Shown: positions 5,878 to 50,522, numbered from the stretch's first letter. The stretch: 64,000 nucleotides of DNA from an uncultured Planctomycetia bacterium (GCA_964430735.1 CAYSFB010000008.1:12870-76869); one strand, 5' to 3'. Numbers and translations: made by a program. The notes: generated from the letters alone by a model not told the origin.

Positions 5878-6483
5878 TTGAAGCGTTTTAAAGCAGTTTT
5901 ATTTTGTTTGTTCACGAGTTTGGGCGCAGCTTCATATGTTCTGGCGGTCGAAACCAACGAGATTCCGAAGCGTTCGACTGCGGCTCAGGTGATCGACGGC
6001 GACACGCTGGAGCTGGCGACGGGCGACCGCGTGCGCCTCATCGGGATCGACGCGCCCGAGCTGGTCGACACCAACAACCGCAACGCCAAAACGGCCAAGT
6101 ACGAAGACCTGAGAAAAGCCGCTGTGGATCTGTACGCGGTCGAGGCCGCTGTTGAGGCGAAGGACTGGGTTGAAGATCAGAAGCTCGTCATTCTCACCGA
6201 CCCGATCAACGAGGACCGCGGCCACCGCGACGATTACGGCCGGATTCTGGCGTACGTTTGCCGCGAATCGGACGGCCGCTGCCTTGCCGAAGACCTTTTG
6301 TCCGGTGGCTACGCGCTCGTTTACCGGCGCTTCAGCTTCGACCGCAAGGACGAATTCCTGAAGCTGGAGAAAAAAGCGCGGCGCAACGCCCGCGGCGTTT
6401 GGAAACACCAGATTCCGTCCAAAGACTTCGGCAAAACCTCCCCCAAAGCCAAGACTCCCAAAACCAAAAAGAAGTCCGATTGA
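5878..6483 (+). CDS. Secreted thermonuclease (staphylococcal nuclease / SNase homologue)
   Basis: Signal peptide 'MKRFKAVLFCLFTSLGAASYVLA' followed by 'VIDGDTLELATGDRVRLIGIDAPE', the canonical SNase signature. The start codon appears to be TTG at 5878. Confidence 0.8.
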   Translation: MKRFKAVLFCLFTSLGAASYVLAVETNEIPKRSTAAQVIDGDTLELATGDRVRLIGIDAPELVDTNNRNAKTAKYEDLRKAAVDLYAVEAAVEAKDWVEDQKLVILTDPINEDRGHRDDYGRILAYVCRESDGRCLAEDLLSGGYALVYRRFSFDRKDEFLKLEKKARRNARGVWKHQIPSKDFGKTSPKAKTPKTKKKSD

Positions 6484-10305: not shown

Positions 10306-10375
10306 TTGGACTAAGGTTTGATTAAACGCGCTTAACTTGGGGGTGGGGAACTATCGCCTGTTCAACGGATATGCT

Positions 10376-11990
10376 ATGCCCGGCTTATTAAATAATCTAA
10401 TAAGACTAATTTCATTAGTTTTGGTGGCCGCGTTCGGCCTTCAGGAGGTCGCTTGGGCTGTGCCTGCTCCGGCCCCGGTTGCGCTGTCCGTTTCGCTTGC
10501 CGAGATCGTCCGGAATCCGGCGCTGTTGCCGATCCCGGAGGAGGTGATGACGGTTGAGTCTCAGATCGCCGGAACCAACGGCAAACTGATCGTGCTCGTC
10601 CGTGACGCGCACACGAACTTCGACGCGCAGATGAACCTCGCCAAGGCGCTCGAGTTTTGGATGGACAGGATGCCGCTGGACCTGGTGCTTTCGGAAGGCG
10701 CTTCGGGCGACGTGTCGGTCGACGATGCGGCCGCGCGCTCGGGGCTCGCGCCGGACGACCTCCAGCGCGCCGCGCGGCGGATGGTGTGGGACGGCCAACT
10801 CACCGGACATGAATACTGGAATCTGCTGTCTCCCAAAAAGTTCTCGATCGTCGGCGTGGAAGATCCCGGGCTTTATGGCTCGGGTCTGAAGACATTTGGG
10901 GAGCTGGCCGACACCCGGCATCGGATATCGAAGGATCTGACGTCCGCGTCCCGCGCGATCAATAAGCTCAAGACCCGCCTCTATCCCCAAGCATTGACCG
11001 AGTATGAAGCATCTATTGCTGCTGCCGACGGACAACCGGACGTTTTGAAGCGATCGGAAAAACTCATGGCGCTCGCCGCCGCTTCCGGCGTGGACGCGTC
11101 GGCAGAACGCTATTCCAATCTGGCCCTTCTGCGCCGCCTCGCCGAAGCCGAAAAGACCATCCGTTTTGACCGGTTGAACCAGGAATTTGCGCAATTGTCC
11201 GGAGTCGCCGGAGGAGAGTCGGAGAGCGGTTTGGAAAAAATGCCCGCACAGCCGGCCGGCCTTCTGTCGCGGATTGAAACGCTGCTGGATGCGGCCGACC
11301 GCAAGGGCTTGTCGCGCGCCAATGCTCCGGAATTGGCGTCCTATGCCGGTTATCTGCGCTTGTTGGGATCGCTGGATCACGCGGCTCTTGCGGATGAGTT
11401 GGATGCTTTGGAGCGGGAAGTGTACGCCAAGCTGCTCCCGGACGCGACGCTCATGACGCTGCGGGAACTGGATCTGTATGTCGCCCGTACGACGGACGGT
11501 GTTTCGGTCCAACTCGACCGTTCCGGTTACGACCGCTGGGCGCGGGTGCGAAAAGAAGCGCCGACCGTCTCCTGGCAGGCATTCCTCAACGATCTTTTGA
11601 TCGCGAACGGTTGCGCCGAAGACTTGATTCCGTATCGCGAAGAATTGGAGGGGGCCGCCGGTCCGATCGACGAATTTTATCAGAACGCTTCGGACCGCGA
11701 CCGCGCCTTCGCGGACAACGCCGAACGCGCGATGGAGTCGGGCGGCGCATCTGCCGCGGTCCTCGTCGCCGGTGGATACCACACCCTGAACCTGATCGAC
11801 CTTCTCGCGGCCGAAGGATTCTCGATCGTAGTCATGACGCCCCGCATTACAATTTCCACCGACCGTGATCGCTACGAAAAGATTGTTCTCGCCTCTGAGT
11901 CTGCTTTTATGCCGGCCCTCTCCCGGACGGCCGAAGCATCCGGTCGATTGACGCGGTACGCCCGCGGACAAACAGGACCTGCCGCCAAAC
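10376..11990 (+). other. Shared N-terminal domain of the giant-protein family (copy 1 of 3). It contains the His motifs 'QDAH' and 'GG[YF]HT' and is possibly Tiki/TraB/GumN-like.
   Basis: Alignable by eye to 37246..38830 and 50523..52100. Conserved blocks: 'GTNGKLIVLVRDAHTNFDAQMNLAKALE', 'LVLSEGASGDVSVD', 'AGGYHT...L...GFSIVVMTP' and 'T.D.D.YE'. Confidence 0.6.
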
Positions 11991-14900
11991 TCCTAAGCGT
12001 TCTATTGAGCATCGAGCCGGATGGAGCCCGGCTGGCCGGGACTGACGCGGCTGTCGCACACACCATCCGGATCCAGAGTTCCGGTGATCTGGAATCAGCA
12101 ATCGTCCGCCGGTTCGCGGTCTACAAAATGGGTTCCGCAGACGAAGCCGAACGGTTTGCCCGGGAATTGGCGCAGACCGTCAGAACCCGTTATGCCGCTG
12201 AACTGGCCCGTGACCGCGGCCGCATCGTGATCGTCACGCCGCCGAGGAATGTGGCGGGTTCTCCGATCACGGCCGTCGCGCGCAGCGTCGCCGCGCAGTT
12301 GGGATTGCCTTATGTCGAGACTTTTGAAGAACCGCTGGAACCCGGGCCCACTTATATCGGCGTGAGCAGCGCCCGGGTCCGCGAAAAACTCGCGCGCCAG
12401 ACGGGATTAATCCTCCGGCCCGAGCTGAATCTGGCCGGCAAGAAGATCCTGATCTTAGACGACATGATCACGACCGGCACGACGATCCGGGCGACCCAAA
12501 GCAAACTCGAAGAGCGTTTCGGGACCGAAGACTTCATGGTTGCGGCGATGGTCCGGCTGGAATCGTCCGACCCGGCGGACGAAAAAAACGTCAGCCGTTA
12601 TCTGGCGGACCGGAAAGACTGGGATGCTGTAGTGGAGATCCTCAACGACCCGCGCACCCGCATCGGCAAATCCGTCGTCGAAATGTTCACCGCACTCAAC
12701 CCGGACATGCGGATCGGTCTTCTGGCCCAGCTGACGGACGTCGCGGTCAAAAAACTCCTCCTGTCGACGATGCTGTTCGACCACGGAACCCGGTCCGTCG
12801 ATTGGATGCAGACGCTCTGGGTCCGGATCGCCCCTGTCGCCTGGTCGTCCTCCGCGCACCCGGCCCTCGAAGACGGGTATTGGTCCGAAGAATTCCAATC
12901 GTGGCTCGACCGTGCCGCCGCGTCCGAAGCGGACCCGGTGCTGCTGGAACAAATGATCCTGCTGCTGGAATTCGTCCATCGCCGCGAATCGATGACACGG
13001 CTTGTGACAATCGCGGACCGATTTAAGGGAAGCTTCGTCGGGACTCAGGCGACGGATGCGCTCAACCGCCGGGTGGAGCCGGTATCGGAAGACGACGTGT
13101 ACGACGTATTTGAGCATTTCCGGTATCCCAAAGGATTGCAATCCGGACTTGCGCGGCCGGACGGAGAGCGGACGATCAGTATGAAGTTCCTGGGAGAGCC
13201 GCGTCAGGAGCTGAACGCATCCTTCGCCGGGTCCGGCCGTGATGGGCATGTCTCAAGGATCGTGACCCTGACGCCGGATCCGGACGGGACCGTCATGGCG
13301 AAGCCCAAAGAGCGGATCATTTTTGACGCGTCCTGGATGAAGCTGAGGCCTGATATCGCCAATGGCGCGGTCAAAGGGATCTTTTTGAAAAGCGCGGGCG
13401 ACCGCAGCGGAGACGTCACGGCGCGCATCGTCGTCGACGACCGGATGCTCGATGTGTTTCCGGCCCGCGCCGGTAGGGATGGGATCATCGAGTGGAGAAT
13501 CGAGGGACTTTCGGAAGCGCTCCGCAGAAAATCCGCGACGAACCAATTCTTTTTCCGGAACTGGCAGTTCCAGCGCCGTCCGGAGGCGGTCGCCGGGGCC
13601 AGACTCGCGACGGGAGAGGCGGGCGCCGAAGCGGCGGAAGTCGCGGCGTTTGCCTTTACAGGAATCGACGAAGAAAAAATATACAGCGACCCCGACGCGC
13701 TTGAGGCCATCGCTCCTTTCCGCATCCGGGTGTTGAAAAACGGTCAGGTCCACTTCGGAAGCCGCGACCGGGGCCGTCTGGAGAAGAGCGTCATGGCTCA
13801 CACGAGCATTCCCGAAGGCGAATGGCTGACGGTCACTCCGGAGTACCGCCAGCAGCTGCCGGCCGGACTCGACGCCCAGTGGATCCTGCGTTTGAACCGA
13901 AAAAGCGGAGCGCCGTTGTATTACCGTTTCGTCAATACCGGAACTTTTTTGAAAAAGCTCGACCTCTCGGCTGGCGGATTCTTGGGATCGTTCTCGAGAA
14001 TCGGACGATATAAGGACCGGTCGCTGCCTCCGTTTCCCCAGGATGAATTCTCGGTGACGGTGCTCAAGGGCGGAAACGCCAATTTTGCGAGCTGGTCGGA
14101 TACGCAAGGTTCCGGAGATGCTGTTATCCGCCGTCTCAGGATACGGCTGGGCGACGAGTACGAAGGCCTGCCGGTTCGGGTCCGTAAGTTTTTTGTGAAT
14201 TCGCAGTTGAGCGAATGGCTGCTGCTGGTGCTCAAGCCTGCCACCGGAACCGCGCCGGAAACGGGTGATTCAATTCGCGGGCGCATGCTGGTTTACCGTT
14301 TTGTCCGTCCGGGCCGGATCGAGCAGATTAAACGCCACCCGTCCGGTGACGAGCAATGGTCCGCCTTTCCGGGGCTTGACCAGGCCGCTGCCCAGTTCGC
14401 TGTAACCGCGTCCCCGGGTGACGGGGCCCGGTTGGCCAAGTCGGGGAATGCGGATGACGGTATCGAGTTCGCCGAGAAATGGTTGAGGAAGTACGCGTTT
14501 TTGTCGAGGCTGCGGATGTCGGATGTGGAATGGCGCAAGGAGGAAGGGGAGAAGTTGGCGCGGGAAGCCGCCAAAGCTATTTCTGAAGTCCACGTGATGA
14601 TCCGGCATCGGTTGGCTTACGATGCTCAGGGGGTTGAGTTGAAGCCCGTCGTTTCGCTCCGCGGCCTGACGCTCGAGCCGAGCGTGGACTATTGGACGGC
14701 ATGGGCCTCCGCCGCATCCGACCACGGCGAGGAGCTTGGTGTTTCTGACGGATGGAAACAGGCGGTCCTGGGCGCCATCACCGTTTTGTCCTGTTATCAA
14801 GACAACCACGCCCATCTGAAGCATCAGGGCGGCGAGTCCCGCCGGAATTACTACCGGTCCGTGTTGGCGCTCGACTCCGCGCGGCTTGTTCTGGATCCGG

Positions 14901-17900
14901 CGAGCCGTGGAGTCCGGATCGACCTCGCACACGCCTTTTTCCACAACAAAGAGTATGTCCAGGCGGAGAAGCTGCTCGAGGACCTTCTTTTAAGCGATAA
15001 AACGAATCGGACTGCGCTGGTTCTGACCGGTTATGTGCGGTTGGAAATGGCCGCGCGCGCCTTGAGCCGGATGGAGCGGCAGCTTGAGCAGGAGAAGTAC
15101 ATGGACGCGCTGGAGTCCTTCGCCCGCACGCTTCGGCTGCTGGATGCGGCTCAGGAGCCGCTGCGCAAGGCCACCGATCGCAGGACCTTGAACGGACCTC
15201 GGGGGATCAAGAGCCTCGCGCGGGCCATGTCCGGGATGGCGCTGGTCGCCATGCGAAGGGCGGAAGCATACCGTATTTTGTCCGATCGTCCGGAGGTGCG
15301 GGGGGTCGCGCAGCCGCGCTATCGGTCTGTCGTACATTCGATCAGCGCGCTCGAACACGCGTTGTCCGCCCTCAACGTGAATGGAGCCGGCCCGGACGCA
15401 TTGGGCCACAGCTTTGGGATATATCGCGATATCGTTGTCCGCCTGGCCCGGGGATTGGACGCATCCGCGCTGGACCGGATCGATCCGGCCCGTTACCAGG
15501 AATTGCGCGGCCTCATGGTCCGGATGAAGGAACTTCTGAATTCCGCTCCCAACGATGACGTGCCGGCGCGCAAGCGCAAGTCTGCCCGCGGGAGCCATTC
15601 CGTTCAGACAACGATCGCCGACTCGATCTCTGTGCTGTCGGCCGTCTGCGTCGCCATCCAAACCTCGCTCGATCGCCGCGACGAAATCAAAGAAAAGCTC
15701 AACAAGGCCGTCTTGCGCGTGCTCCATGACCAGCATCCGGAAGACCCCGCATCATTTGAAGCGCGCGTGGCCGAGGATTTTGCGGCGGCGATTCCCGTCG
15801 CTCAAGTCTCTGAACGGGAAGCGTGGATCGCCGTGGCGAGAAGCCATTTGGAGTCGCTCCATACCACCCGCGAGGACATCGCGCTGGCGGGGTGGCATCT
15901 CCTTTCGGATTCCGGAGACAGAACCTTGGAATCTCTATCGGAGATCTCGGGCATCGAAGCATCCGTGGTCGCAGAGCGGTTCCGGTCGCCGTTCTTGAAG
16001 GAAGTTGGTCTGGCGTTGGAGGAAGAGTCTTCACCGCCGGACGCGGACGTCAAGGTGTCGCCCAAAAAATATACACAGGATATGGCTATTTATAATCTGG
16101 GTGATATCAAGTCGTTTCTTGCCAGCGATGTCTGGATCCGGCCGGAACCGGATGCTGCTGATGTGCACACCATTCCTTCTGCGAAGCATATCGAGCGGAT
16201 GTTCCGGCAGCTCCGGCCTTGGCTTTCGTTCAGATCGCCGATTGACTGGGACCATCTGAGCGCGATGCGAAAGCGGATGTGGGAACAAATCGATCAATTC
16301 TTTGAGCTGGCGCCGAGCGCGTTAAAAAAGAATGCAGAAGATATAGACACGCTTCGAATGAACCTGACCCATTTAAGGCGAGGGACAGACGATAAGCCCG
16401 GTTATTGGGTCCGGGCCAAGGAGCTCATGGACCGGCTTAAGCGCAGGCAACAGACTATCGAGGATCAGATCCGCGCGGGCATCGGCAAAATCGATTCGGA
16501 TTTGACCAAATTGCGGGCGCGAAACAACGTGTTGCGCATCGGCTACCTGGACGAATTGATCAAAGGTCTTGAGCTGCGCCGCGCACGGCTGAACGGGCTC
16601 CTCGATCCGCAGGACCCCGGCTATCTTCTGCCAGAGCATTTTGATGAACAGATGCAGGCGGCGCAAGCCGATCGCGAGTTGGTACAGCCGCTCGAAGCGG
16701 TGGAGGCCTCGCTCACGCGCGTGCGGGATCTTGAGTGGGAGGTCGATCGGCAGGTGCATCAGGCGGCAGAGGCCGCCGCAGCAGCCGATCTTCCGGGAAC
16801 TTCCGCCGCATCCGCTGTTGTCCGGCGTCTTCGGACGGAGATGAGGCAAGTGGAGCGGATGTTTCAAAAATACGCGCTGCGCGCGGACTCGGAAAAAAAG
16901 ATGAGCCAAATCGAAGGCCGGCTCGGTCGTATTCAGCAGGAGGCCGTGAGAATCCGTCAGGCGCTCGAGCGCCGTTCTTCGATCCGTGAGCGCATCAGCC
17001 GCATCCGGCAACAGGCCGATGCCGGAAGACCGCTCCTCCAACCGTTGACTGAATGGTGCGCGAAAATCGCCCGGCAGACCGATCGCATGGACGACATGCT
17101 GCGGGACGCGGACCTTGCCGGTGATAGGCGGGAAGACGGTGAAGCATACTCCGGACGGCTTCAGCTGGTCTTGGAGGAGGTCGATAGGGTCGAAAAGGAA
17201 GTCGACGAGATGCTGGCCCGGCTGGGTCAAAAGAGCGCAAACGCCATGAAGGCGAGCCTGGTGGGGGTGGAGCTGATGGCCGCGCTGCTCTGGCAGTGGA
17301 GCGAACAGGCGTTTCCGGGTACAACCGCGCATGCCCGGCGCTTCACGACGGCGAGCTGGAAGCTGCGCGAAAAGATCGAAAAATTAAAGTCCCAGTCGGA
17401 CCGGGGATGGATCGATCCCGGCCTCAGGGAGGAGATTGATATGGCTTTTTTGATGTGCTTTTTGGAATACGTGCGGGCCATGAACGAGGAGCATGATCTC
17501 CTGATCGACAAAGCCAAGCAGCAGATTCTGCAGCTCACGAAGCAGCTCAAGAACAGGATCGCCACCGGTCCGATGAAGTCCGAAGAGATCGGGTTGTTTA
17601 CCCTGACGTTGACTCGGGTTCACTACTTGGACCTGCCGTCCGACTTTGAGCTCGTCCTTTATTCGGACAAGGAACAGCGTCAGAGGCTCAGCGAGGAAGG
17701 GCATAAGGCCTTCATCAAGAAGCTCAAGGCGATGCCGGTCCATGACAACCCTTTTTTGCAACAGTTCGAAGACCGCTGGCAGTACCACGGGCCCGAAGGG
17801 TTCGAAGAATCGTTTGCCTATCGGGACTTGCTGCACGGGCTTTGGATGACCGTCGTGTTTTACATGGACGGGTACGAATCCGCCTCCGGTTCCACAAAAC

Positions 17901-20900
17901 CCGTCCATTTTGCGCATCTATTTCCGGAGGCCGTACGCCTGAAGCAGCTCAATGTGATCCGGCGCCGGATGATTGGAGCGGATGCCGATCGAGTCGGTGA
18001 CCCCACGATACTTTTTCCTGTCAACAGTCCCGAACAGCTTCGTCTGATCATGCAAGTCCGATCAAGCACCGATCGGTTTCTGGAGAATCTTTTTCCCGCC
18101 TTGGATGAGGATTTGGGGCCGGCGGATCCCGACCGCATGCAGGAGGCGCGGCATGTCCTGGACCGTATTCTGACCCAGACTCAGGAGAATCGGGGAGCGC
18201 GGCTGGCGCGTGACGGGCTGACCCTGAGCGCGGACGCGCAGGGGTTGGACGAGAACCGCTTCGCCGCCGCGTGGGTCGATCCGGCGTCCGTCGAGCTTCC
18301 GATACTGCTGGCGTCCGAGGCCGGGAGCTGGAAGGCGCTTTTGTCCGCGGCGCCGCGAAGTCAGACGGATTCGGGGGACGATGACCGGCGGCGCGAGTTG
18401 TGGATGCCGGGCGATGCGCCGGTCCCCGGAGCGGACGGCATCCCGCTCAAGCATCTGACCTTTTCGAGCAAGGCGCTTCTTCTGTGGGAGTGGAAAAGCC
18501 GGTATCCGGAACTTTTTGCCGGGAATGCGCCTCAGATATTTAAGCAGCTGGGTTTTGACCGGGAGGGCGTGATCGAGTTTGCGGACCCCATCACCCGGTA
18601 TCGTTACCGGATGCCGGCGGTTCCAACCGCACGGGGAGGGATGAACCTTGTTTTTCTGGCGGCTGCGGGGCATCAGGTTCGGGACGCAGCCGGCGCGTCC
18701 ACCGAAGAACACGGACGCGACGCGGCGGTGCTGGTGCCCATCCGGCCCAATCAGGGCTGGCGGTCCAGGGCCGTGGCAGAAGTCTATGACGCGCTTCATC
18801 CCTACCGCATCAATGAAGTTCAGGTCCCGCATGACCGGATTCCGCAGCTGATCCAGCTGATTCCGGCGTCAAACGCTCCATTCGGCGTGGACGCGGTCGC
18901 GATCGAATATCTCGACCCGGGCGGGTTCATGGAATCTGTTCGCGACATGCAAACCCGGCTCACCCAACAGTCGCTGGAGCGGAAGCTGGGCATCCGGATG
19001 CGGTTCTCGCTGGTTCTTGGCGCGGCACGGGCATTGCAGATGATGCATGAAGCCGGCGTGATTCACCGCGACTTCAAGCCCGAGAATGTGCATTGGGACG
19101 GGGATGACGTGAGAATCGTGGACTTCAGCAACGCATTCGTTTACCGGGCGCCCTCTCCGCTGGCGATCCCCGGGGCCCAATCCCGGCTTCAAACCATGCG
19201 CCTCATCGAACCTCTCGAAAAACAGAAAGGCATGCTGGGGGGTACGCCCCGGATTCTGGCGATCGACGGGACGGTCACGCCGAGTTTTGTGGAGGGGTCG
19301 GCCTTCCTGGAAGCGACCAAGCGTTTTGCACATGACCCGTCACAGGACAAGTTCGCCTTTGGACTGTTTTTGGCGCAGGCGTTCGGGATGCATGCGACCG
19401 GAGCGATGGATTCAAGAGAGTTAGATTTGCGTCTGGAATTGCTGCAGTCGGATTTGGAGCGCGCGGGTGAGCAGGTCAAATGGCCGGCGGACCTGTCGGC
19501 GGTCGGCCTGATCGGGCTAATCCGCCGTCTGCTCGACCCGGCGCTCAAGGCGCAGGACGATCTGGACTGGAAGGAAATCATCGATACACTGCAGGGTTTT
19601 GCTGGCATCTACGGGACGAGCCGTTTTGTGCCGACCGAATTTACCGCGGAGAAGCTGCCCGGAGACAGGTATTCGCAGGGTTATCGGGGCGGCGGTACGC
19701 TGGCTCTTGACCCGCCCGGTCTGCCGTCAGATCCCGGTTCAGGCGCCCGGCTTGCCAATGGCAAAGGTCTGGATCCATCCGAGGATGATTTACGCGATAT
19801 GTATACGGCCGCTGCGTTCGGCCCGGATTATCAGATCCATCGGACGCTGCGTGCGGGTCCGATTGATACCGGGATTTTTAAAAATTCCTATGACAGGATT
19901 TTTTCAAATATGAATTTTGGTCCGGAGCAGAATTTTTCTTCCACACTGACGGCCCGCGTGAAGCTTCAGAAGCAGTCGGATCCGAGCCGTCCCTGGATGT
20001 GGCTGGACGTCGGTCCGGGCGCAGGCAATGCATTGAGGGAGGGGATCGAGCTGATCGAGGAAAAAAGTCTTAACGGCCATTATCGGGCCTTGGGCGCGGA
20101 TATCGTTGACCATCGGAGCCGTTCCGGAAGATCCGCGCCGGCCGCCGGTGATTATGGATTCATCCCGCTTCCAGGAGGTGTCGAGAATCTGGAGGTTCCT
20201 GATGGCGCCGAACCTGACCTGATCACCGCGGTCCATGTGCTCATGTACGCAGACGATCCGCTTCAGGCGCTAACCCGCTTGTACAACGTCTTGCGGCCCG
20301 GCGGCGAATTGCTCGTCACCGTCAATGCGATCCATGTCGGCAGCGCTCCGTCAGCGCTTCCGATGATGAATTCGTGGGAGATCGGCAATTGGTTCAGCGG
20401 ATACGCCAAGGATCTGAATTCCAAGGGAATCGCAAGCGCGGAGCTCATCGGCGACGTGCTGCGCATCCGGAAGCTGTCCGCGGACCGTGTCCGGCTCTCC
20501 ATTTCCGCAGATGAGTCATTTGAGCCCTATCGGAACCAGGAAGGCATCCGCATCATCCGATACCGTCCGGCAGATCCGTCACAACCCGGGGTTCTTGAGG
20601 TCGTCGGACCCGGCGCGCGGTTGGCTCAGGCGGATTCGGCTCGGAATGCGATGGCTTCGGTGGCTCGATACGGATTCGTCCGAAGAGGGCTTGAGGCCAA
20701 AAAAATCTTTGACCTTCAGCTGGCATCGACCGGACCCGTAGATTCGGACACGGCCGGAAGGATCACCGGACGTCTGTTGGAACTCATCAAACAGTCTGCG
20801 TTGTCGGCGGGCGATAAGAAGCAATTCCGGCGGTTTTCGGATATTGTTGAGAGTCTCGAGTATCATTCGATTGACCCGGTGTCGGCAAGTCCTTCGGATT

Positions 20901-23900
20901 ATTTGGCGGCACTGCACGATCCCGCTAAAAAAATTCTCTATCTCCCGCAGATATGGATCGATGAGCTGACGAGCCGCACTCCGGCGGACGCCTTCGACGA
21001 GGCCTTGGTCCGGGAGATTTTGTATCCGGCTCAGCGCGTCGCCGTTTTGGGCGGCAGCGGCAAGGTCGGCCGCCGTATTGCGGCCGAGCTGAGGCAGGTG
21101 TACCCGGACGTTTCGGCTGCATCCCGAAGCGGCGGATTTGGGTCCCAAAAGCTCGACGTGACGGATGATGCTGACTTGGCCGGATGGATCGACCGCATGC
21201 GTCCGGATGTAATTGTCTACGCCGCCGGGATCGCAGACCCCGACCGCGCCCAGCGTGATCCTGAAGCCGCTCAATTGCTCAATGCCCGAATACCGAAACG
21301 TCTGCGCAGCCTCACGCGAGCCAGACTCATTTATCTTTCGACAGACAACGTCTTTGACGGCCAGTCCGCAAAGCCCTATCACCCGAAGGCCCGCCCGCGG
21401 CCGCTCAAAGGCATGGCTTATGGCCAAAGCAAGCTCGACGGCGAGCGCGTCACTTTGGACGGATTACGCCACCGGAACGCGGTGCTTCGGCTCGGTCTCG
21501 TCGTCGCCGAAGAGGATGTTGAAAAAATCATTCAACAAATCCAGGGCTCCATGAGCGGAAGCGCTCAGGCGCCGACCGTGGACGGAAAGCGAAAGCGCTA
21601 TCCGGTCTGGGTGGATGATGTCGCTTTGGCGGTGCGGGACCTGGTCGCGAATCCGAAAAAGGGGATTTACCAGCTGAACGGCGAAAAGCCGATAACGCGG
21701 TTTGATATGGCGAGGATCGCGGCCGTGGAATTGGATCCGGAGTCCGGCGATCAACACGTCCTGGCCGGAACGACTGCGACGACGGCCGCAATCCAAGCGC
21801 CGCGTCCGGCGCATGTCCGCATGGAGAATAATCTGATGAAGCCCCGTCCCATTGAGGATCAGATCGTCCAGACGACGAAGCTGGCCGCGCACAACGGGCC
21901 CGGCGCATTAGCCCGGCTTGACCGCGCCGTGCGGCTCCGGGACGGGAAGCTGCTGCGTGAAGCGATGGGTGAGCTCGACGCGCTTGGAATTCGCTGGACG
22001 CTGGCGGGGCCCGTCGGTGCGTTGGAAGATTGGCCGGAGGCCCCGCGTGTCGTGGATACCGGCGATGCAGCCGCAGTATCCCGCGCGCTTTTGGACCATC
22101 TCGTGACTCCGGACACATTCCGCGAGGATCTTGCCAGGGCGGTCGAATCTATTCTGATGGAAGTTCCTTTGGATAGGGTCAGAGTGATGGCTGCGGTTGT
22201 GGATGAGCGGGCCGACGAGTATTGGGTGAATCCGGAAATGGGCGTGCGGACTTTGAGGATCGTCTCGACGGATTTTGTGTATCGGGGGATCGGGATGCGG
22301 TACTGGATGAGCGTCTCCCAAAATGGGATTCCGCATGGGTTCGGTCCCTTCGGACCCTATCGGTCGATGTTGCTTCCCTTGATCAGTCGAATGCCTGACG
22401 GTTCGAGCGCGCCGGCGGAAGAGGTGCTGCAAGGCGGCTCCATGAGCACCGTGGTGCGCGTTCACGAATCGGATCGGAGCACGGTGATCCGTAAATCGGC
22501 ACCGGCCGGTTGGCATGCCGACAAGTTGCGGGATGAGGCGCGTTACATGCGGATGCTCGAGGCTACCGGAATTTTTCCAAAGGTATACGACGTCCAATCG
22601 TCTGACGGGGTGCGCAAAAATCCCCTGTTCAGGCGTCTTTTGGAAAATCCGGCCGCGGCCGCTTGTTTGCACCAATTGATCAAGCTTGCGCACCAAATTC
22701 CATGGCTGAGGCCATTGGCCGGGATGCTTGAGCGATGGGCGGCTCAGCCGCCTGTCCCTAAAGGGACTACGGTCTGGATGGAGGACCTGAAGGGCTATGA
22801 ACAGCTGACCGAAGTGTCCCGTTGGGCCCATTTGGGATTCAAGCGGCCCGAAATCAAGAGCAGTTCGATCGACGACCGCACGATCTATCGTTCGGACTGG
22901 GATATCGCTCTCGACATCTACCGGTCGCTGATCCCTATTTTTTACGGAGTTCAGTCAGCTCAAACGCCGCCGGACTTCCTGCGCAAGTATCATTTTGAGA
23001 AGCTGGAAACGCGCTGGGCCGAGGCGCGGGCGCGGTCCCGTCAGCTGGACCTCGTCATGTCCGCGCCTTACATCAAAGACCCGGATCGCCGATACGGACA
23101 ACTGCTTCCCAACCTCCCGCTGGCCGCGCAGGCGGCGGAGGCGATCGCGTCGTATGACCCGGAAGCCCTGCTTCCGCCTCATCTGACGCGCGAGCACGGG
23201 GACCTGCATTTTGGCAATATTCTGATCCCGCCGGCGGATTACTTCCGCCGCAAGCGGATCGAAAGTTTCCGCCTCATCGATCCCAAATGGCTGCCGAACG
23301 GGAATGACCCTCTCTACGATTTGGCCAAACTCATGCACAACAAGTACGGCTGGTACGATCTCGCGCTCAATCACCACGATTCGTTTTACTTCGGCATGAG
23401 TGTGCCCGAATCCGGCGGGCCTGCCGAATTCCATTGGAACTTTGACGACGAGTCGTATGCGGGTGATCGGATGAGGGACGAGTTTGGAGCTGTGCAGGAC
23501 TTCAGTCAGCAGTTCGAGGAGTGGATGCGCCTTCCGGACGATGATCCAAGGGTCCGGGATATGGAACGCTTTGGTTTGAATTGGCGGACGCGGCTCATTT
23601 TTACCCACGCGTCCCTATTGGCCGGACTTCTCAACTTCCACGTTCTACCGGAAGATCCGCAGTCCAAGATCAGCGTGATCTACTGGCAGGCGGCGACGCA
23701 ATTTGACCGCGCGATCCTTCATTTGATCGGCCGTGAAGAAGAGTATCGCCATCAGACGGGCCAACGCCGACTGCCGGACGATCTGTACACACCGCTGAGA
23801 ACGATGGTTCTGCTGCAGCGGGTCTACCAGCAATCCGATTCAGAAGAGGTCAAAGCCGCTGCCGAGCACCAGTACGTCGCGGCCATCAACGATCTGCGGC

Positions 23901-26900
23901 ACTTCCTGGAGCAGAGCACCGCTCCCGCTGTCTCCGGCGCGCGATTGGCGAAGCGTACCGATGTCCGGCGCAAAGTAAAACCTGTTGATCGCGATAATCG
24001 CGGACCTGAGTTAAAAGCGGCGCCGGACCCGCTGGATATCATCTTTGCTGATCAGCTGATCCGGGAGTCTGACGCGCGTCTTTTGGCGGCGTTGGCGGCG
24101 GGGGAGCCGCAATCCTTTGTCGTGCCGGTTGACCGATCGGCCATCCGGCGGTTGCACGACCGATATCGTCAATCCCGGACGGCAGAGGAGCGTGAAGCTG
24201 CCGAACAGCTGCTGGTGGATTCGCAGATCCGCTGGATCGTCCAAATTGCCCGTAAATGGGACCGCATCAATCAGAGCCGTGTGCACAACTCGGAAGTCGG
24301 ACTCTCGGACATGGTGAGCTTGGGTATTCGTAAAGCGCGGGAGTCGCTCGATCGGTATGAGCCGGATAAGGGTGCGTTGAGCACGTGGATTACGCTGCCG
24401 GTCGACGGAGCGATCAGAAATCGGGTCTATGAAGGCGCCCGCCACCGGAGACGAGCCGGCAATATCGACTTGATCGGCTCCGAGATTGCCGCTCTTCCTG
24501 ATCTGACTTCCGATCAGAAGAAAGCCGTGCGGTCGGCGATTGCCGGAATGGAGGAAAAGGATCGGGAGATCGCGATCCTGTTCTTCGGCCTGATCGGAGA
24601 CAAAGAGACCAGCAACGAAATCGCCGACCGATACGAAGGGTTCTTGTCCAAGGAAGAGATTGAATCCCGGGTTGAGATGATTCTGAAGCGGATTTCGGCT
24701 CTGAATGCCTCGAACCCCGCAGAGACGGATCGAACCGTGCCAACTCCGGAAGAGAACGCTCCCGCATCCTGGCAGAATGACTCGCTCGCGACCATCCGGA
24801 TGATGCATCTGGCGTTGCGGGATCCGGAGACCGTGAGCTCCTGGGAGGCATTGTCTCAAAGGGATTTGTCGATTCTGCGCACCTACTACGAGAGCGGCGC
24901 GGAAGCTCGTCCGACAATGGAGCAACTTGCTTCTGAGTACAAGATCAGCAGGGCCAGGGTGGGGCAGGTCATTCAAGGAGCCGTTCGACGGCTTCGGAAT
25001 GAGCAGATGCGGGCCTGGAAGCATCTGCGGGAGGCGACGGGACTATCGCATGATCGGATACGCGCGGCATATGACCGGGCGGTTGATGTCGAGCGTCAGG
25101 AGGACGGTATCCGCAATGGACACCCCACCCCGACTCCCCGGGAGTTTGAAATGGAGCTGCGTCAGATCCCGGGCGTCCGGGCGATCGGCCCATTGACCGC
25201 GGAGCTGGCCAGGGCCCATTACAACCTGGCGCACCCGGCGACTCCGCTGAAGTTCTTCGGAGAAACCGAAGAATCCACGCGGTTGAGCGGATCCGCATCC
25301 GCCGAGGATCGGATTCTCGCCTACGTGCAATCCGCCGGCGGAATCGCATCCTGGAAGGAAATCGCCAAACATTTGGGTGTGAAGCAATCCGAGGCGCGGA
25401 CATATTTGACCCCGGAGCGGCTCGGGCAGATTCAATCGGAATCAAGATACGGAGTCGATGCGACGGTTCAAAGGCAGCGTTTGGTCCCCATCATCCTGGA
25501 TGCCCGGGACGCTGAGAGGGCCCGCCGAATCATAAGGGCGATGGAAGGAACCGGCAAGGAGCGAAGCTTCCGATTTGGAATGGCCACCTATCCTGAGATC
25601 GCCGCTGCGATGAAGATCCGTCTGTCCGGAAGCCGGCCCCCCCGGACCCGGATCTTCCGGCGCATCAATGCCGAGCAGCTCCTTGCCGATCTCAACAGCA
25701 ATAGAAGAATATTGAATCGGACGGGCCTGCCGTTCCGCCCTCTGCTTCAGATCATTCCGGCAGACGATCGGAACGCGGATTTGCGTGTCGTTGCGCGTGA
25801 GTTGCGCGGCGGTGATCCGGCCTCCGCCATCGGGATCGCCGAACGCGTCGGACGGTCTGCGAAGAGCGTTCATGCATCCGTCGAGCGTTTGCTGTTGGAC
25901 CACACAAGCGCCCACCGGCACCTCTATAACCTGATCGTCACAGGGCAGCCGATGATGCGAATGCCGGACGATAATAAAATATTTCGCTCTCAAAGTCAGA
26001 TTTTAAGGGCGGTTGAAGAATTGGGCGGTGTCGCCAACGCCCGGCAGATTTGGGATTACCTTCGGAACCGATACGGAGTAAAAATCAACCGATCGACGGT
26101 TGAGGATTATGCGTTCCGTCAGATGGATTGGGACGGGATCAACCGGCATCGGATGCAGGAGGGCAAGTTTGCACTCCGCGTTGTCGGTGCGAACCTGGAT
26201 GGATCCATGGCCCGCAGGTCGTTCGGCGATCGTCCCGGTTATGAGGGATTGGACCCGCTGCTGGTGAGCGCGGAACGGGATTACAGAGATCGATTTAAGG
26301 AATCAGACGACGGACGCACCGATTTCAGGTACCGGGTGTTGCCGGCGATTCATGGCATCCTCAAGCATTCCCCATCCGAGCAACCGATCGAAGTCCGATT
26401 CGGCCGCGTCAGCGATTTGTTGATCGACGCCTGCGCGACATGGTCTCAGCTCAACCCGGGACTTACCCGGGCGGAATTTTTTGAAACGGTCACTCTTCGA
26501 GCCATCCTGTTAACTTCCATTAAGACCGATGTTGATTCTGATTCGGATTGGGTCGGCCGGTTTGCCCTGACACTCGAGAAGGTGATTCACACCAACGGCC
26601 CCTTGGCGCCATCCGAATATGCCCCCTGGCTCAAGCCCGCAAGTTCCGCATCGCCGAGCCCCCGCGCTACCGATCGGAATGGTGCCCGCCTGTCAGAGAA
26701 TGCGGCCGGATCGGCCGGACAGATAGACTGGCGGGAGCAGGCGCGATCGCTGCTTGAACCGGATCCCGATAAGCGGTCTTCCGCCTCACTTGCGCTCGCA
26801 CGGGTGCTGATGCTGGATATCCGCAAACGCGTGGATGAGGGGATGGATCGGAAAGAATTCGGCTGGAACGATCCCGGCCGGATCGCTCCGGCTGTTGCGC

Positions 26901-37245: not shown

Positions 37246-40200
37246 ATGGTTATTATTAATAAGAATTGCATAGGTATTTTTTTACGCCGTCTTATATCTA
37301 TAAGTCTATGTCTTAGTTTTGGGGCGATGGAATTGGCGTGGGCGGGGCCGGATGTTTTTTCGGCCGGTTCTGCCGTGCCGATCCGGAGCGACTCGGCCGC
37401 CAAGCCTTTTTCCGTCACGATTCCGACCGATATTTCCCGGCTCCAAGTTCCGCTGGAGCACACGACGCTCAAAGAATTCCATCAGGGTACAAATGGCAAG
37501 CTCATCATCCACATCCAGGACGCGCACTCGAACTTGAGCGGTCAAAAAAGTTTGGCCGGAGCGCTCGACGAGATGATGACCCGATATGGGGTGGAGCTCG
37601 TGCTGGTCGAAGGCAGCTCGACCGACGTCACGCTCGATCCGCTCAAGAAGATCGGCACGCGCGACCAGTGGAAGCGCGCGGCGAACCGGCTGCTTTACGA
37701 GGGTTTGATCTCCGGCGAAGAATTCCTGAACCTGACGACCGACCATCCCATGAAGCTCATCGGGATCGAGTCTCAGGAACTTTATGACGAGAGTCTCGAG
37801 ACCTACGCGGAGTTGGTGAAGTCGCGCCAGAAGACGCTCAATTATTTGCGCCGGATCCGGCTTGCGCTGGATCGTGTGAAGAACAAGCTGTACCCGTCGG
37901 AGTTGCTTGCGTTTGAGTCAGCCTGGTCGGCGGACCAAGACGACTTCAATCTGCGCGTCGGAAAATTGCTGGAGCTGGCCGATCGGGCCGGCGTCACGCT
38001 GGGTACAGACTTCGCCGAGATCGCGAAGCTCAAGGGCTTGCGCGCGCGAGAGAAGCAGATCGACTTCGACGCGGCCAACCGCGATCAGGAGCGGCTCATG
38101 ACTCTGGCGTTTCAGGGCAAGGACGAAGCCGCGCGCAAAGCGCTTGCCGATGCGGGTCGCCGGGCACGGACCCAGCCGGTGGCAATGGGGGCTTTTCTGC
38201 GCGCGCTCTGGAGCGAGGCGGAAGGGAGGGGCGCGGTGCGCGAGAGCTTCCCCGTGATCCTCGCATACGCGGAATACCTCGACGCGTTCGGCATGCTCAA
38301 GATGGAGGATCTGCTCGGACAGCTCGACCTGCTCGAAGACACCGTTTACAAGACGCTCTTGGCGGACAGCGAAGACGCCCGGATGACCCGCGCCTGCGAC
38401 CGCTTCCTCGGGCTGCTCCAGAAGGCTTACCAGATCAAAATGTCCTCGACCGAATTCGCGATGCTGCAGCTGAACGAAAAAGACTTTTCGACGAAGCTCA
38501 TTCTCGGATTCTTGAACCGCAAGCTTCTGGACCTGGGATTCACAGAGGATCTAACCCCGTACCAAACCCCGATCGAAGACGCCCGCGCGTCGCTCGAAAA
38601 GTTCTACGAGCTGGTCGACCGCCGTGACCTGGCGTTTATGGAAAAAAGCGCACAGGCGTTTACCGGCCAGCAGGCCGACGCCGCCTTCTTCATCGCCGGC
38701 GGATATCACACCGGCCACTTGACCCGGCTGTGGCGCGGTGCCGGCTATTCCTACGCGGTGCTGACGCCGGCGGTGACGTATGAGACGGATCAGGATCAGT
38801 ACGAGAACCTGCTGCTCGCTCCGCTCAAGCTTGCCCGCAAGCGCATCCAAAAACCCTCCCATGAGTCAGAAGAGCTGATCCAGATCGCCAAAGACCTTGC
38901 CCCGGAAAAAGCAGCCGACGGGTTGCGCAAAATGGATGCCCTCGCGACAGCTGAATCGAATGGAGCCCGGTTTGCAAAATCACTCACCGTCAGTTTTTCG
39001 CCGATTCAGGCGGCGGCAGTTACGGCTCAGGCGGCGCGGTTGGCGTCTCAGTCTAAATTCGAAGCATCTGTTGATCCTGAAGGGGATGGAGGCTGGAAAA
39101 ATCTTGGCAAAACGGTCGGATATATGCGGGATGTCCTGAATTCCGGTCAGTCCGACTTGGATTATGCGTCGATTTTAAGCGGAGACCAAAACGTCACCCG
39201 GGATGCGGCCGAGGTCGAACTCCGAACTTATATTCATAACCAGGCGTCGCTGCAAGATCAGGCATTGATCGAGCTGATCGCGAACGGTCAGGACGCGTCC
39301 GCCGCCGGACCAACAATCGGCCGATTCGGCCTGGGCATGTATCAGATGTTTCAGGAACTCAAGACGCCTGACGATAGGATTGTCGTGACGACGTCCGACG
39401 GGACTTCGGCGACGCGGATGGAATTCAGGCTGACCAACGGGGCTATTGAGTACAAGGCCTCGAACCTGGGAGGCGGGTTGCCGAAAGGCACCCGCGTGGA
39501 TGTCCGGCGGAACCTCGCACCCGAAGAGATAAAATCAAAAATCGGCATTATTGAGAAAAAACTGGCGACCAATTCGCGCGGTGCCGTCAGACTGCGAAAT
39601 AAGGACCGGGACGCGGAAGTCACCGTAAATCAGATCGACGGCTACCGATATCTGAACGGCGACGCCGTGTCGGCGGACATCATCCCTCCAGTTGATGTGG
39701 AAATCGGCTCTGAAGGGTATTCGATCATCGATCGCGGACGCGGCATGAGCCCGAAGACGATCATGACGAAGTATCTGATGCCGAAAGGAACCACCAAGAA
39801 CATCACCGGTCAGGAGTCTGAATCTTCTGAGGAAGTTCGCAGCGAGACCAAAATATTTTATCGGATGGAAGGGGACCGGGAGAATGACGAAGCGGTCATC
39901 AGGATCCAAGTGAGCGGCGTTTTGATCCAGGAGTTCAAGGCGCGGGGCCTGAATCTTCCTGCGGTGACCGTTTTGGAGCTCCCTCATGCGGTCTGGCTTC
40001 CAGAGTCCCGCGACCGGGTGGCGTTGGATCAAACGACCATTCGGGGTCTGATGGATCTTGTGGACAAATTGCTGGCACCCGAGAGAGAGGGTTTGGACGC
40101 CCGGTTCGCGCTGATCAACGCGATCGGCGCGTTGGCCAAAAAAATGTCCGATGAGACGAACGGCAAGGACACCCGCCTGATCCACGAGCTCAAGCAAAGG

Positions 40201-43200
40201 GTCTCCGCTGCAGTCAAAAGAGAAGAGCAAAACGGGGCCGTTTTTGTTCCTAATAGGATGGAGTTTTCCGCCGTCAGGACGAAGAGCGGCCGGATCGTTT
40301 ATCTGGACGAGAAGCTGTTTTACTTTAGCCCCCAGGGGATGAAGGGAGCGGAGCTTATCAACAAGTTTGAATCCAGATCCAATAATCGGCTTTATCTTGT
40401 GGATTTGGACTCTTCCGAAGGAGCTCCCGCTTACTTGGCGGGACGCGCGGGCATCGGCTCCGGCTGGATCTTGATGAATCGGGAACTCTACGATAAACAC
40501 AAAGATGATCCGGCCTTCATCGATGCTCTGCTGAATCTGAAGATTGACTATGGCAACCCGGGAGTCCAGCTGGGCAGGCTGATCGTTCAATCGGATGTGA
40601 GCGCGGCCCGGCAGGAGGAGGCGAATTGGGCGGCATCGTCTCAGTTTGAGCTTCCCCGCGGATTCTGGGGCTGGTGGAAGGCCTGTTTGAGTCTGCCCTT
40701 GGGTTTGATTGATTCTCTCACGGCAATCGCGGCGGTCGTTCAAGGTATGTTGACCGGCAAACGCCGTGATTCGGCAGCATCGAATGACGACGATGTGCTC
40801 GCCTCCATCATCAACCAACCCAAAGCGCTTATCGGTAAATGGAGCGAGGCACCCTATCAAAAAACCCATACGCGCTATTTAGTGCAGCATGCGGGCAATA
40901 TGATCAGCACGGGCACGATGACACACGAGAACGAGCACGAGTACATGGCTATGTCCGATCGGCTGATGTCCGCAGCCGACCGGCTGCGGACGGCGATTCC
41001 TGGGATTGATATCGGAGCCTCAGCCGCGGAGTGGCTCGACCAAAGCTATTGGCTCATGGACGCATCGATCGACGGAACGGACAGCGCCGAAATTTTAAGA
41101 ACCCACAAAGACCATCTGTATTTTTTAAGAGGGGATGACGTATACCGGATGGACTCCTCCGGATTTGTGGAGCGGGTCATCGAGGGACCTCAGACCTTTG
41201 CCGGAGATCATGACGGTTATCTATATTTTAATAAGAAAGACGGTGTTTACCGTACCGGTTCGTCAGGCGACGCCGAGCTTGTGATGGAAGGGGCTGAGGT
41301 TTTTATCCGAGGGGGAATGGCTGTGGCGGTCAAGAATCCAACGACTTCGCAGGAACAACCCGTTTTATACACACTCCGGAAGGGAAAGGCCGTTCAGCTC
41401 GATGAGCATGTCGAAAAGATATGGCCGGGCGGTGATGCGTCCGGTTCCATGGCTTACGCGACGCGCCATAACGGCGTTACCACCTTAAAGGTCATTGATG
41501 GGAACGGTGCGGTAACGTCCCGTGTGCTGACGCCGTCTGCCTGGGAGGCCATCCAGAAGTCGAACTATATATATGAATTTGATTTTACGGCTGCTCTTCA
41601 GACTAGCCTCGGTTACAGGCCAAAAAAATATCTCAAGAGGGGCGATCATACGGTGCTGGTCGAAAACGGAAGGATCATATTCTATCAACATGGGTCAAAG
41701 AGAGCTTACAAGCCCCAAGTATTCGAAGTGCTCGGCGACGGGAGCGTTGTGGAGTATCCGGTGGACCAGGAGGAGCAGATCAGTCGTGTTATGACTGGGC
41801 CTGACGGTGCATTATATGTTGTTGTGCACAATGTCTGGCAGGGGATGTTGGAAGGGTTTTTTAGAAGAGACTTATCTGGGTTGGGCGGGATGAGGAGGGA
41901 GGTTATAGGTGAGGAATCGAGCAAGATCTATAAGCATAAAATGGGCGAGGTGACGCTTGTATCGGAGGGTAATATCACCGAACTTCAGCGCAGCAATGGC
42001 GGTATTTATTACAAGAGTTCGGGTGAATGGAAACGGGTTGACGAGAACGGAAAAGAAATCGACTTGCTCAACTCTTCGATCAGCGAAAGGATCAGGCGGG
42101 AGTATGGTTCCGCTGTTGATGTTAAACAGGTCGGAGTGATTGGGGGCAACCTCATTCTTTTTAGACGAAGCGCTTCCGTGCAGGAGTTATCGGCCGTGCG
42201 GCCTGGTCAAAGGGTTCGTCCGGTGGCCGGCGACCTGTGGTGGATTTATGACATGGGCGCCGGTGAAGCGGCGCCGATGAACCAGCTTCTGACTGATGTG
42301 ATACAGGTCGAAGGCGGGATTGTTGCAGTCAGAAAGTCCGCTCAAGATCCCATGAATGAACCCCTGAGCTCAAGTCTCGTTTATATTCGGCAGGGGAGCG
42401 ATGGGATGCTGCAGGAAGAGGTTTTGATCGATGGGGCGGAAGACATAAGGATGGAGCTTGATGGAAATGAGCTGCACGTCGTCAACCAGCCCAAAAATCA
42501 ATACGCCTCTTATGAGAAGTACTCTTTAAAAGACAATCAAGCACGAGTCGTTGAAACGCACAAAATCAGGGGAAGGCTTGCTCCTGACAGCTATTTAACA
42601 TACGACAAGCAGAATGAAAAACTGGAAGTAAGGTCTGAAGAATATTCCCTCACAAATCATCTGATCGACGTTCACAGCGGCAGTGTGGTCGATATCACTC
42701 TAGGGAGGGACATTAACAACTCGGCATCCCGGACGGTCTTTATCGGCGGAGCGAGTGTCCATTTATCCGCGAAGGCTGATAGGCCTATCGCCGTTGAGAT
42801 AACCCTGCCGTTCATGCTTCGTCGATCGGAGACCTTTTCAAACAGCGCGGAACGTTTGATCGGGGCTTATTCATCGTTCAGCCGGTTTATCGACGAGGCG
42901 TCGAAAGAGGAATACGGCAACCTTCTGCATTCGCTTTGGCTCGCGGAGGGAGGGTCTCCCGTGAACATGTTCTTAAGCATGGAGCAGCAGGCGTTGTGCG
43001 CGCCCTTTATGACCGAGGAGGTTGTGAGTGTTCTGGAGGGTTATCTGTCGGAGGCCGCGAGCATGAAAAGCGCCCGCGAGATTTTTTCGGAGCTCATCCT
43101 GCCGGTTTTGAATCTGTATCAGGCGTCCGCCCGCCGGCCGGAGGAGATCCGTGAAGGGCTCTTAAAACTGCTCCGCAACCTCAGACGCATGCAGACCTTG

Positions 43201-50407: not shown

Positions 50408-50436
50408 TTGAAGGCAGCTTGTGCCGAGGGTATACT
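50408..50436 (+). promoter_or_regulatory. Candidate sigma-70-type promoter for giant gene 3 (TTGAAG-N17-TATACT)
   Basis: TTGAAG at 50408-50413, a 17-nt spacer, then TATACT at 50431-50436, about 85 nt upstream of ATG 50523. No terminator separates giant 2 from giant 3, so co-transcription is also possible. Confidence 0.35.
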
Positions 50437-50522
50437 CCCCACAAGTTATTTACTTTTTCACGGCAGTGCTTTGCCCTCTATTCAAGGGCTTATCACAAGT
50501 CATAAAACGACGGGATCATTTG

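Follow-up and report, generated by a model that had tools for sequence, protein, structure and literature searches.

We analysed a 64,000-nucleotide (nt) stretch of DNA from an uncultured Planctomycetia bacterium (GCA_964430735.1, CAYSFB010000008.1:12870-76869), referred to below as the window, and followed up an earlier reading of it that a model had made from sequence alone (the sequence-only reading). Our subject is a giant gene, g1, which forms one unbroken open reading frame (ORF) of 6,150 codons counted from the listed TTG. Its product is an exported-looking modular chain in which a hydrolase-like head is followed by independent folds, a pentapeptide that recurs in the linkers, and a conserved tail. 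Two paralogues, g2 and g3, lie downstream. The features of the three genes are as follows, with positions counted from the first letter of the window and amino acids (aa) given for the modules.

10337..28789, plus strand: giant ORF g1, an uninterrupted reading frame with a conserved hydrophobic N-terminus that aligns in g1, g2 and g3
10376..10459, plus strand: predicted Sec-type signal peptide, MPGLLNNLIRLISLVLVAAFGLQEVAWA followed by VP (heuristic call only)
10460..12022, plus strand: conserved head domain, the sole part common to g1, g2 and g3
12023..12037, plus strand: first junction, GARLA, immediately after the head
12188..12628, plus strand: type I phosphoribosyltransferase (PRTase), aa 618-764, PF00156, with the phosphoribosyl pyrophosphate (PRPP) loop DDMITTGTT
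18557..19636, plus strand: Hanks-type (eukaryotic-like protein kinase, ePK) fold, aa 2741-3100, with HRDFKPEN and DFS; beta3 Lys replaced by Leu2799
20003..20314, plus strand: class I S-adenosylmethionine (SAM)-dependent methyltransferase, aa 3223-3326, PF08241 and PF13489
21035..21841, plus strand: RmlD-like extended short-chain dehydrogenase/reductase, aa 3567-3835, PF04321, with GGSGKVG, STDNVFDG and YGQSK
22427..23332, plus strand: APH/choline-kinase-like phosphotransferase, aa 4031-4332, PF01636, with HGDLHFGN and RLIDP and an insert of about 120 residues between the lobes
24212..25003, plus strand: sigma-70-family module, aa 4626-4889, TIGR02937 and PF04545, with several winged-helix helix-turn-helix (HTH) matches after it
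13595, 14423, 18194, 19742, 20612, 23936, 26681 (GARLS), 27500, 27830 and 28721 (AARLA), plus strand: further g1 junctions, 15 nt each
28721..28786, plus strand: C-terminal amphipathic helix, beginning at the last junction and ending in AAAVAA-COOH
37246..50370, plus strand: paralogue g2, 4,374 aa, same head, 5 junctions, one weak methyltransferase match
50421..63371, plus strand: paralogue g3, 4,316 aa, same head, 7 junctions; hexokinase, adenylate-kinase-like and 2-hydroxyacid-dehydrogenase-like domains

The true start of g1 is likely the ATG at 10376. The public gene call (P0004, 6,109 aa) begins at the GTG at 10460, just past the predicted signal-peptide cleavage site, and drops the signal peptide. 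Part of the family may therefore have lost its export signal in automated annotation. Signal-peptide features were found in 124 of 147 family members: a positive n-region (mean net charge +4), a 12-residue hydrophobic core and a negative segment after it (-1.2). An AxA-type site was present in 113 of the 147, mostly with Ala-Pro next. The corresponding sequences are AWA before VP in g1, AWA before GP in g2 and AFA before AP in g3. By our heuristic, the N-terminal pattern of the family would be that of a classic Sec signal peptide. The N-terminal stretch is the sole hydrophobic one in g1, and no internal transmembrane segment was found. Seven of the longer antisense ORFs within g1 (282-518 aa) were also scanned; none had a family match, and we rejected the antisense ORFs as genuine genes on that ground.

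Domain content of g1

The sequence-only reading had described g1 as a string of unrelated small-molecule or protein-modifying enzymes, with PRTase-like, ePK-like, methyltransferase, RmlD-like and APH-like modules, and not as a single-function adhesin or structural giant protein. The motifs it quoted are all present at, or no more than 6 nt from, the positions it gave. The PRPP motif KKILILDDMITTGTT lies at 12440-12484 (12446 in that reading) and the kinase motifs HRDFKPEN and DFS at 19064-19087 and 19121-19129. The RmlD-type motifs STDNVFDG and YGQSKLDGE are at 21338-21361 and 21419-21445, and the APH motifs HGDLHFGN, LIDP and DLAKL are at 23195-23218, 23273-23284 and 23318-23332. Profile searches backed all five modules at the level of fold, and g1 is a series of unrelated enzyme folds and not an adhesin or a repeat-built giant. 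The motif regions are not of low complexity, as their local sequence entropy falls within about 1 standard deviation of the protein mean.

To assign the modules, we split g1 at its [GA]ARL[AS] sites into 12 blocks and scanned them against Pfam and NCBIfam. Pribosyltran scored 33.8 bits against a gathering cut-off of 26.3 (E-value 2.6e-8), and the aligned stretch includes the PRPP loop ILILDDMITTGTT, which is intact and canonical. The nearest PDB entries were PRT domains of the PurF and PRPP-synthetase types. No specific PRTase family was reached for this module; the NCBIfam equivalogs scored 16-22 bits against cut-offs of 100-440. Methyltransf_11 (PF08241) matched at 34.6 bits against a cut-off of 21.2, with PF13489 at 31.4 bits, and motif I (LDVGPGAGN, aa 3223) is intact. 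RmlD_sub_bind (PF04321) gave the strongest of these scores, 128.9 bits (E-value 2.6e-37). The domain retains GGSGKVG (aa 3572), STD (3668) and YGQSK (3695), which are the GxxGxxG motif, the catalytic Ser/Thr and the YxxxK motif. It falls below equivalog level for PRK09987 (48 against 308) and for TIGR01214 (122.8 against 224.05), and the latter score makes it an RmlD-like reductase and not RmlD itself.

The APH profile matched at 33.4 bits against a cut-off of 23.2 (E-value 5.2e-8) as two collinear stretches in a scan of aa 4000-4480. The Brenner motif HGDLHFGN (aa 4287-4294) lies inside the second stretch and RLIDP (aa 4312) just beyond the aligned part. The domain thus retains H-G-D-x4-N and the downstream I-D-P. 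A search of this module against PDB sequences gave no match. The sigma-70-family module, which was absent from the list in the sequence-only reading, scored 43.6 bits with TIGR02937 against a cut-off of 42.9 and 30.6 bits with Sigma70_r4 (PF04545). It holds regions 2 and 4 plus a second region 4, and winged-helix HTH matches continue to about 26680. A degenerate junction, STRLS, stands after it at aa 4980 (25274).

The kinase-like module is a protein-kinase fold, and we use the label "kinase" as a fold assignment. Pkinase scored 31.9 bits against a cut-off of 31.7 (E-value 1.1e-7), and 878 PDB kinase sequences matched the module at E-values of 1 or below. Its weak database matches were Hanks Ser/Thr kinases in 20 of 20 cases, with alignments covering the whole domain. 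The AlphaFold model of the core has a mean predicted local distance difference test score (pLDDT) of 66, with 10-residue blocks of 81-91 in the catalytic loop and a disordered activation segment. This model matched 1,765 PDB chains at E-values of 1e-3 or below, and 50 of 50 among the matches listed were protein kinases; the match is partly circular because a kinase alignment was used to build the model.

The catalytic residues of this module gave a mixed picture. The sequence-only reading had proposed checking the conserved Lys of the VAIK motif and the catalytic Asp residues. Both Asp residues are kept (HRD Asp2912 and DFG Asp2929). The Lys is not: all 18 aligned Hanks kinases have Lys in the beta3 column, but g1 has Leu2799 there and no Lys at all in its N-lobe. 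The DFG Gly and the APE Glu are likewise replaced (Ser2931 and Ser2983). Retained residues also include alphaC Glu2815, Lys2914 and Asn2917, and D2912, N2917 and D2929 are invariant in the alignment. The loss of the ATP-anchoring beta3 Lys makes kinase activity doubtful, and judging from these residues the module may be a pseudokinase.

We considered whether the enzyme-like modules are mostly decayed relics, that is, binding or structural pseudo-enzymes in a protein that functions as an adhesin or coat. The three substitutions in the kinase-like module fit this view, as do the several modules that score barely over their Pfam cut-offs. Segments M1, M3 and M9-M12 (counted in our analysis as five of the ten scanned) gave no family match, and M4 gave only a weak TPR match. 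However, the PRTase, methyltransferase, RmlD-like and APH-like modules keep their catalytic or cofactor motifs, as does the hexokinase of g3, which scores 153 and 143 bits with Pfam, and adhesin-type repeats were not found. We regard decay as a very improbable account of the protein.

A recurrent pentapeptide between modules

The motif [GA]ARL[AS] occurs at 23 sites in g1, g2 and g3 together, against 0.5 expected. Its Arg and Leu codons differ from site to site among the junctions of the three giants. The varied codons argue that selection acts on the peptide, and we rejected the idea that the motif is a DNA-level repeat. A signal-peptidase I site was rejected as well because Arg would stand at position -3. 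Across 150 family proteins, the broader pattern [GA][AS]R[LM][AS] was found at 605 sites, compared with 18 in shuffled sequences; GARMA exceeds expectation 331-fold and GARLA 137-fold. The sites lie in Pro/Ser-rich linkers and give the consensus [S/A]-G-A-R-[L/M]-A; Pro is over-represented at -2 and -3, and acidic residues follow the motif.

The placement of the motif follows the architecture of the proteins. In 95 of 113 proteins the first junction comes after the head, at aa 500-700, and just one site falls within a head. Spacing from one junction to the next has a median of 319 residues, which is protein-sized. No junction motif falls inside about 17 Pfam domains from eight proteins, which together span about 3,300 residues, against about 6 expected at random. 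In two different proteins an FHA domain ends 4-6 residues ahead of a junction. In g3, a complete hexokinase (aa 3362-3516 and 3521-3739) fills the block between the motifs at 3323 and 3743. The 30-residue linker before the first g1 junction is disordered in the model (pLDDT 33-42). The sequence-only reading had placed the catalytic signatures of g1 in separate GARLA-bounded blocks. The RmlD-like and APH-like domains, however, share one block (aa 3426-4533), with only a degenerate GALARLD between them at aa 3856.

The choice of Leu or Met at position 4 of the motif is protein-specific (chi-square 299.6, 74 degrees of freedom, p 6.5e-29), which suggests a co-evolving recognition partner common to all sites of a protein. 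Leu and Met are interchangeable beside a small Ala or Ser, as would suit the P1-P1' pair of a protease whose S1 pocket is hydrophobic. A second copy of the junction is frequently found 35-45 residues after another. Two junctions 30-45 residues apart stand right after the head in P0001, P0006, P0010, P0014, P0023, P0071 and P0091, and in g3 at aa 592 and 622; a short spacer peptide would lie between the two members of such a pair. Searching the literature for "GARLA" gave nothing relevant.

The same motif could belong to a chain that is never cut. On this account, g1 is a multi-enzyme scaffold in the periplasm or at the cell surface, the pentapeptide is a conserved hinge or docking motif, and the enzymes work on envelope or prey-surface substrates. 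The position of the motif in flexible linkers is what a hinge would show, and the RmlD-like, methyltransferase, APH-like and PRTase folds could all use sugars or small molecules. Published readings of giant proteins from Omnitrophota also prefer surface or extracellular multi-enzyme roles (10.1101/2023.11.21.568195; 10.64898/2026.06.07.730766). Yet only the cytoplasm supplies ATP, NAD(P)H, SAM and PRPP, and an extracytoplasmic role for the sigma-70-like module is not obvious. A generic hinge needs neither a strict Arg nor a protein-specific Leu or Met, and the block sizes fit whole stand-alone enzymes such as the g3 hexokinase. We judge an uncut scaffold to be unlikely.

The head domain

Only the first 550 or so residues are shared by g1, g2 and g3, at 27-31% identity, and across the family the head measures about 520-550 residues. 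We read conservation from 54 heads and counted residues from the Met at 10376. Invariant positions are D77-A78-H79, N81, Q85, E107, E146, E162, R181, R441-D442 and G466-G467-x-H469. An AlphaFold model built from a 20-sequence alignment (pLDDT 83.9, predicted template modelling score 0.77) shows an alpha/beta core into which a helical segment of about 290 residues is inserted. Parallel strands 71-76, 103-106, 157-161 and 460-465 of this model carry the invariant His and Glu residues at their C-terminal ends.

This arrangement resembles the active site of the TIKI hydrolases, whose catalytic set is two His and two Glu (PMC6254334). In RRSP the set is Glu3900-x-His3902, Glu3930 and His4030, and in Bcr135 the pair His85 and Glu113 is 28 residues apart (PMC6254334). 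The head has D77-x-H79, E107 (+28) and a distal H469, all at strand ends. Like Tiki, RRSP, the erythromycin esterases, ChaN and TraB/PrgY, it combines a parallel-sheet alpha/beta core with an acid-x-His, a Glu at +28 and a distal G-x-x-His. It differs from them in the large insert, which falls between strands 5 and 6, in a first acid that is Asp and not Glu, and in the absence of a significant profile or fold match.

Database searches with the head gave weak matches. No Pfam or NCBIfam model scored above threshold, and the source records carry no informative names. PF04187 (ChaN, of the Tiki superfamily) matched 11 of the 54 heads at 12-17 bits against a cut-off of 27.7, with a best E-value of 0.004, and DUF5694 matched five of the 54 weakly. 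Foldseek placed the erythromycin esterase EreC at rank 3 (E-value 0.17). PDB profile searches returned nothing relevant, or a coiled-coil artefact (YJU2), and a viral fold library returned nothing. The lack of any significant match leaves TIKI membership unproven. We regard the head as a probable active TIKI-type hydrolase.

The head is also the sole universally co-inherited catalytic-looking domain, which makes it the obvious candidate for a protease acting at the junctions. S8 proteases favour hydrophobic P1 residues. For that reason the junctions might instead be cut by the product of a subtilase ORF (Peptidase_S8, 68 bits) that lies at 232-1050, near the start of the window and not next to the giants.

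Family, cargo and C-terminal tail

We searched the head profile exhaustively with HMMER against 1.84 billion cluster representatives. It matched 8,800 of them, 4,065 at E-values of 1e-30 or below. Most of the top 150 matches measure 1,000-7,400 aa and carry the head at their N-terminal end. A genome scan found 80 loci, almost all in metagenome-assembled genomes of Candidatus Omnitrophota or in ones labelled "uncultured Planctomycetia". Several copies per genome are common, some of them in tandem. The family surfaced only in this exhaustive search; a word-index homologue search gave no match for the kinase-to-APH segment and one for the head alignment.

The region between head and tail is hypervariable and built of independent enzyme or regulator folds. 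When we compared the g1 modules with 147 relatives by phmmer, only the head matched, apart from two marginal matches to the kinase catalytic loop. Jackhmmer searches with the PRTase, RmlD-like, APH-like, methyltransferase and sigma modules found no shared cargo in these relatives. Kinase-like modules recur in eight of the 147, and no other g1 module type does. Relatives such as P0059 (aa 1620-2037), P0036 (aa 3236-3290), P0086, P0072, P0083 and P0070 carry a PP2C phosphatase together with FHA, FHA by itself, or kinase-like modules. The presence of PP2C, FHA and kinase-like modules makes Ser/Thr phospho-signalling a recurrent class of cargo. PCMT, starch synthase and glycogen phosphorylase were seen as further cargo.

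Conservation returns at the C-terminus. An amphipathic helix followed by [AS]-A-COOH ends 101 of 150 family representatives, and the final residues are VAA in g1, SAA in g2 and TAA in g3. The helix has conserved hydrophobic positions at -5, -8/-9, -12, -15 and -19. A hidden Markov model of the last 200 residues gave no significant matches, and conservation is confined to about the last 20-25 residues. Of 116 long members, 15 have a junction motif in their last 60 residues. The tail might act as a secretion signal, as a degron or as a docking helix.

The terminal -AA resembles a degradation tag, and this is one of the points that would suit a polyprotein serving its own cytoplasm. In such a protein the N-terminal segment would be an uncleaved anchor or go unused, and processing, possibly regulated, would free the enzymes and the sigma factor for the producing cell. 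The modules are ordinary cytoplasmic types (hexokinase, adenylate-kinase-like, RmlD-like, sigma-70-like). Hexokinase is reported in just 25 of 176 complete genomes, and anchoring at the cytoplasmic face has been favoured for many long proteins (10.64898/2026.06.07.730766). The charges around the hydrophobic core and the AxA-AP site predict instead that the C-terminal bulk is exported. The cargo varies among paralogues and genomes in a way that housekeeping genes do not, and several modules are divergent or lack key residues, as with the kinase Lys and the sub-equivalog RmlD-like score. We find a cytoplasmic role quite improbable.

Comparison with known giant proteins

Multi-enzyme giants of Omnitrophota have already been published, as "Archaeovorins" (West-Roberts et al. 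2023 preprint, 10.1101/2023.11.21.568195) and as "multi-enzyme metabolic clusters" (2026 preprint, 10.64898/2026.06.07.730766), and g1 is a smaller one with a defined head-junction-tail architecture. It shares with them the phylum, the many unrelated enzyme families in one ORF (methyltransferases, kinases, hexokinase), the signal peptides and the suspicion of cleavage. The published giants are at least 30,000 aa long with many transmembrane helices, whereas g1 has 6,150 aa and no such internal helix. C39 or S8 peptidase domains have been proposed as their processing enzymes, and their cleavage points are described as unknown (10.1101/2023.11.21.568195; 10.64898/2026.06.07.730766). Neither a C39 nor an S8 domain is present in g1, and our Pfam scan of g1 found none of the SecA-like, glycosyl-hydrolase or NUDIX families of the Archaeovorin type. 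A term search of three papers on Omnitrophota giant genes found no description of a conserved head, a junction pentapeptide or an -AA tail.

The closest functional analogue is MARTX, a giant secreted chain with unrelated effector enzymes between conserved parts. The C80 protease of MARTX cuts after Leu. This InsP6 (inositol hexakisphosphate)-activated cysteine protease comes with type I secretion and glycine-rich repeats, whereas the g1 family has a TIKI-like head behind a Sec signal and a fixed pentapeptide junction. Profile scans of g1, g2 and g3 gave no match to Peptidase_C80 or RTX repeats. Variable MARTX effector modules are freed by the built-in protease, and one of them, RRSP, is itself a TIKI-family endopeptidase (PMC6254334).

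Two other systems show parts of the same design. Polymorphic toxins such as CdiA, with its VENN motif, and Rhs, with DPxGL, pair a conserved N-terminal part with a short demarcation motif and hypervariable cargo, and have many paralogues per genome. They carry one C-terminal toxin, whereas the giants reach at least 16 motif-delimited modules of housekeeping-type enzyme folds. Viral polyproteins resemble g1 in joining many independent enzymes in one ORF, with short junctions at protein-sized intervals and a protease in the same chain (in g1 a candidate). They differ from it in setting. The neighbours of g1 in the window are ordinary chromosomal genes (PntAB, RsmB, Maf, oligopeptidase F, ABC-F ATPase), on which ground we rejected a viral or plasmid origin, and viral hallmark genes were not found.

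A model for the giant family

We propose, tentatively, that g1 belongs to a very large family of exported modular giants in Omnitrophota that are cut at the junctions and whose modules act in or on another cell; we consider this a possibility that falls slightly short of probable. The giant chain would be exported by Sec and then cut at the junction motifs, most naturally after Leu or Met. The protease would be the TIKI-like head or another dedicated enzyme. The freed modules would then act inside or on a host or prey cell, much as MARTX effector modules do. The need of the modules for ATP, NAD(P)H, SAM, PRPP or RNA polymerase, which are absent outside the cytoplasm, together with export, suggests that they work in another cell. 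Omnitrophota are widespread uncultured nanobacteria and suspected parasites or predators (PMC10066038), a lifestyle with which such an action would agree. The sequence-only reading had proposed a multi-effector cargo. The Sec-type signal peptide and the cytoplasmic cofactors make this plausible, but a multi-enzyme scaffold that is neither cut nor delivered would have this architecture too.

Several observations weigh against the proposal. Junction cleavage and module delivery are predictions, and we identified no route across the outer membrane or into a target cell. The signal-peptide call comes from a home-made heuristic and not from SignalP. The link between the head and the TIKI hydrolases is below every significance threshold, both by profile and by Foldseek. 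TIKI members include esterases and a haem-binding protein, so membership would not imply a protease; RRSP and Tiki are sequence-specific endopeptidases and the Ere enzymes are esterases (PMC6254334). The strict junction motif is missing from 27 of 140 proteins longer than 700 aa, several of which use GSRV or GSRL variants. Finally, the kinase-like module lacks its ATP-anchoring Lys.

A broader form of the proposal is more doubtful still. It would make the family a phylum-wide polyprotein system: thousands of Sec-exported giants, each with its own TIKI-type endopeptidase head cutting between [S/A]-G-A-R-[L/M] and A, releasing sets of enzymes, kinases or pseudokinases, phospho-signalling parts and sigma-factor-like proteins that act in a host or prey cell. 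If true, the system would stand beside viral polyproteins and MARTX as their cellular equivalent, with a cleavage code that is defined and predictable.

Giant genes are the most conspicuous unexplained trait of Omnitrophota, and in the published work the missing cleavage points block their analysis. With a conserved junction, candidate hydrolase head and tail, each giant would become a set of module-sized proteins that can be predicted, modelled, expressed and sought in proteomes. Given this architecture, whether and where these giants are cut can be tested directly. Delivery of the modules to other cells would make the family a very large source of new effectors; without delivery, the giants would represent a new bacterial way of organising enzymes.

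Other features of the window and family

Among the housekeeping genes upstream of g1 are a Pol-beta-type nucleotidyltransferase ORF and a staphylococcal-nuclease-like ORF (4820-5449 and 5878-6483). No link between these two ORFs and the giants was seen. In the variable regions of the family (P0002-P0151), the 5-mers HASLT and AHASL are 34- to 73-fold over-represented, with 13 occurrences each, and may mark either another short motif or a small domain that the proteins share.

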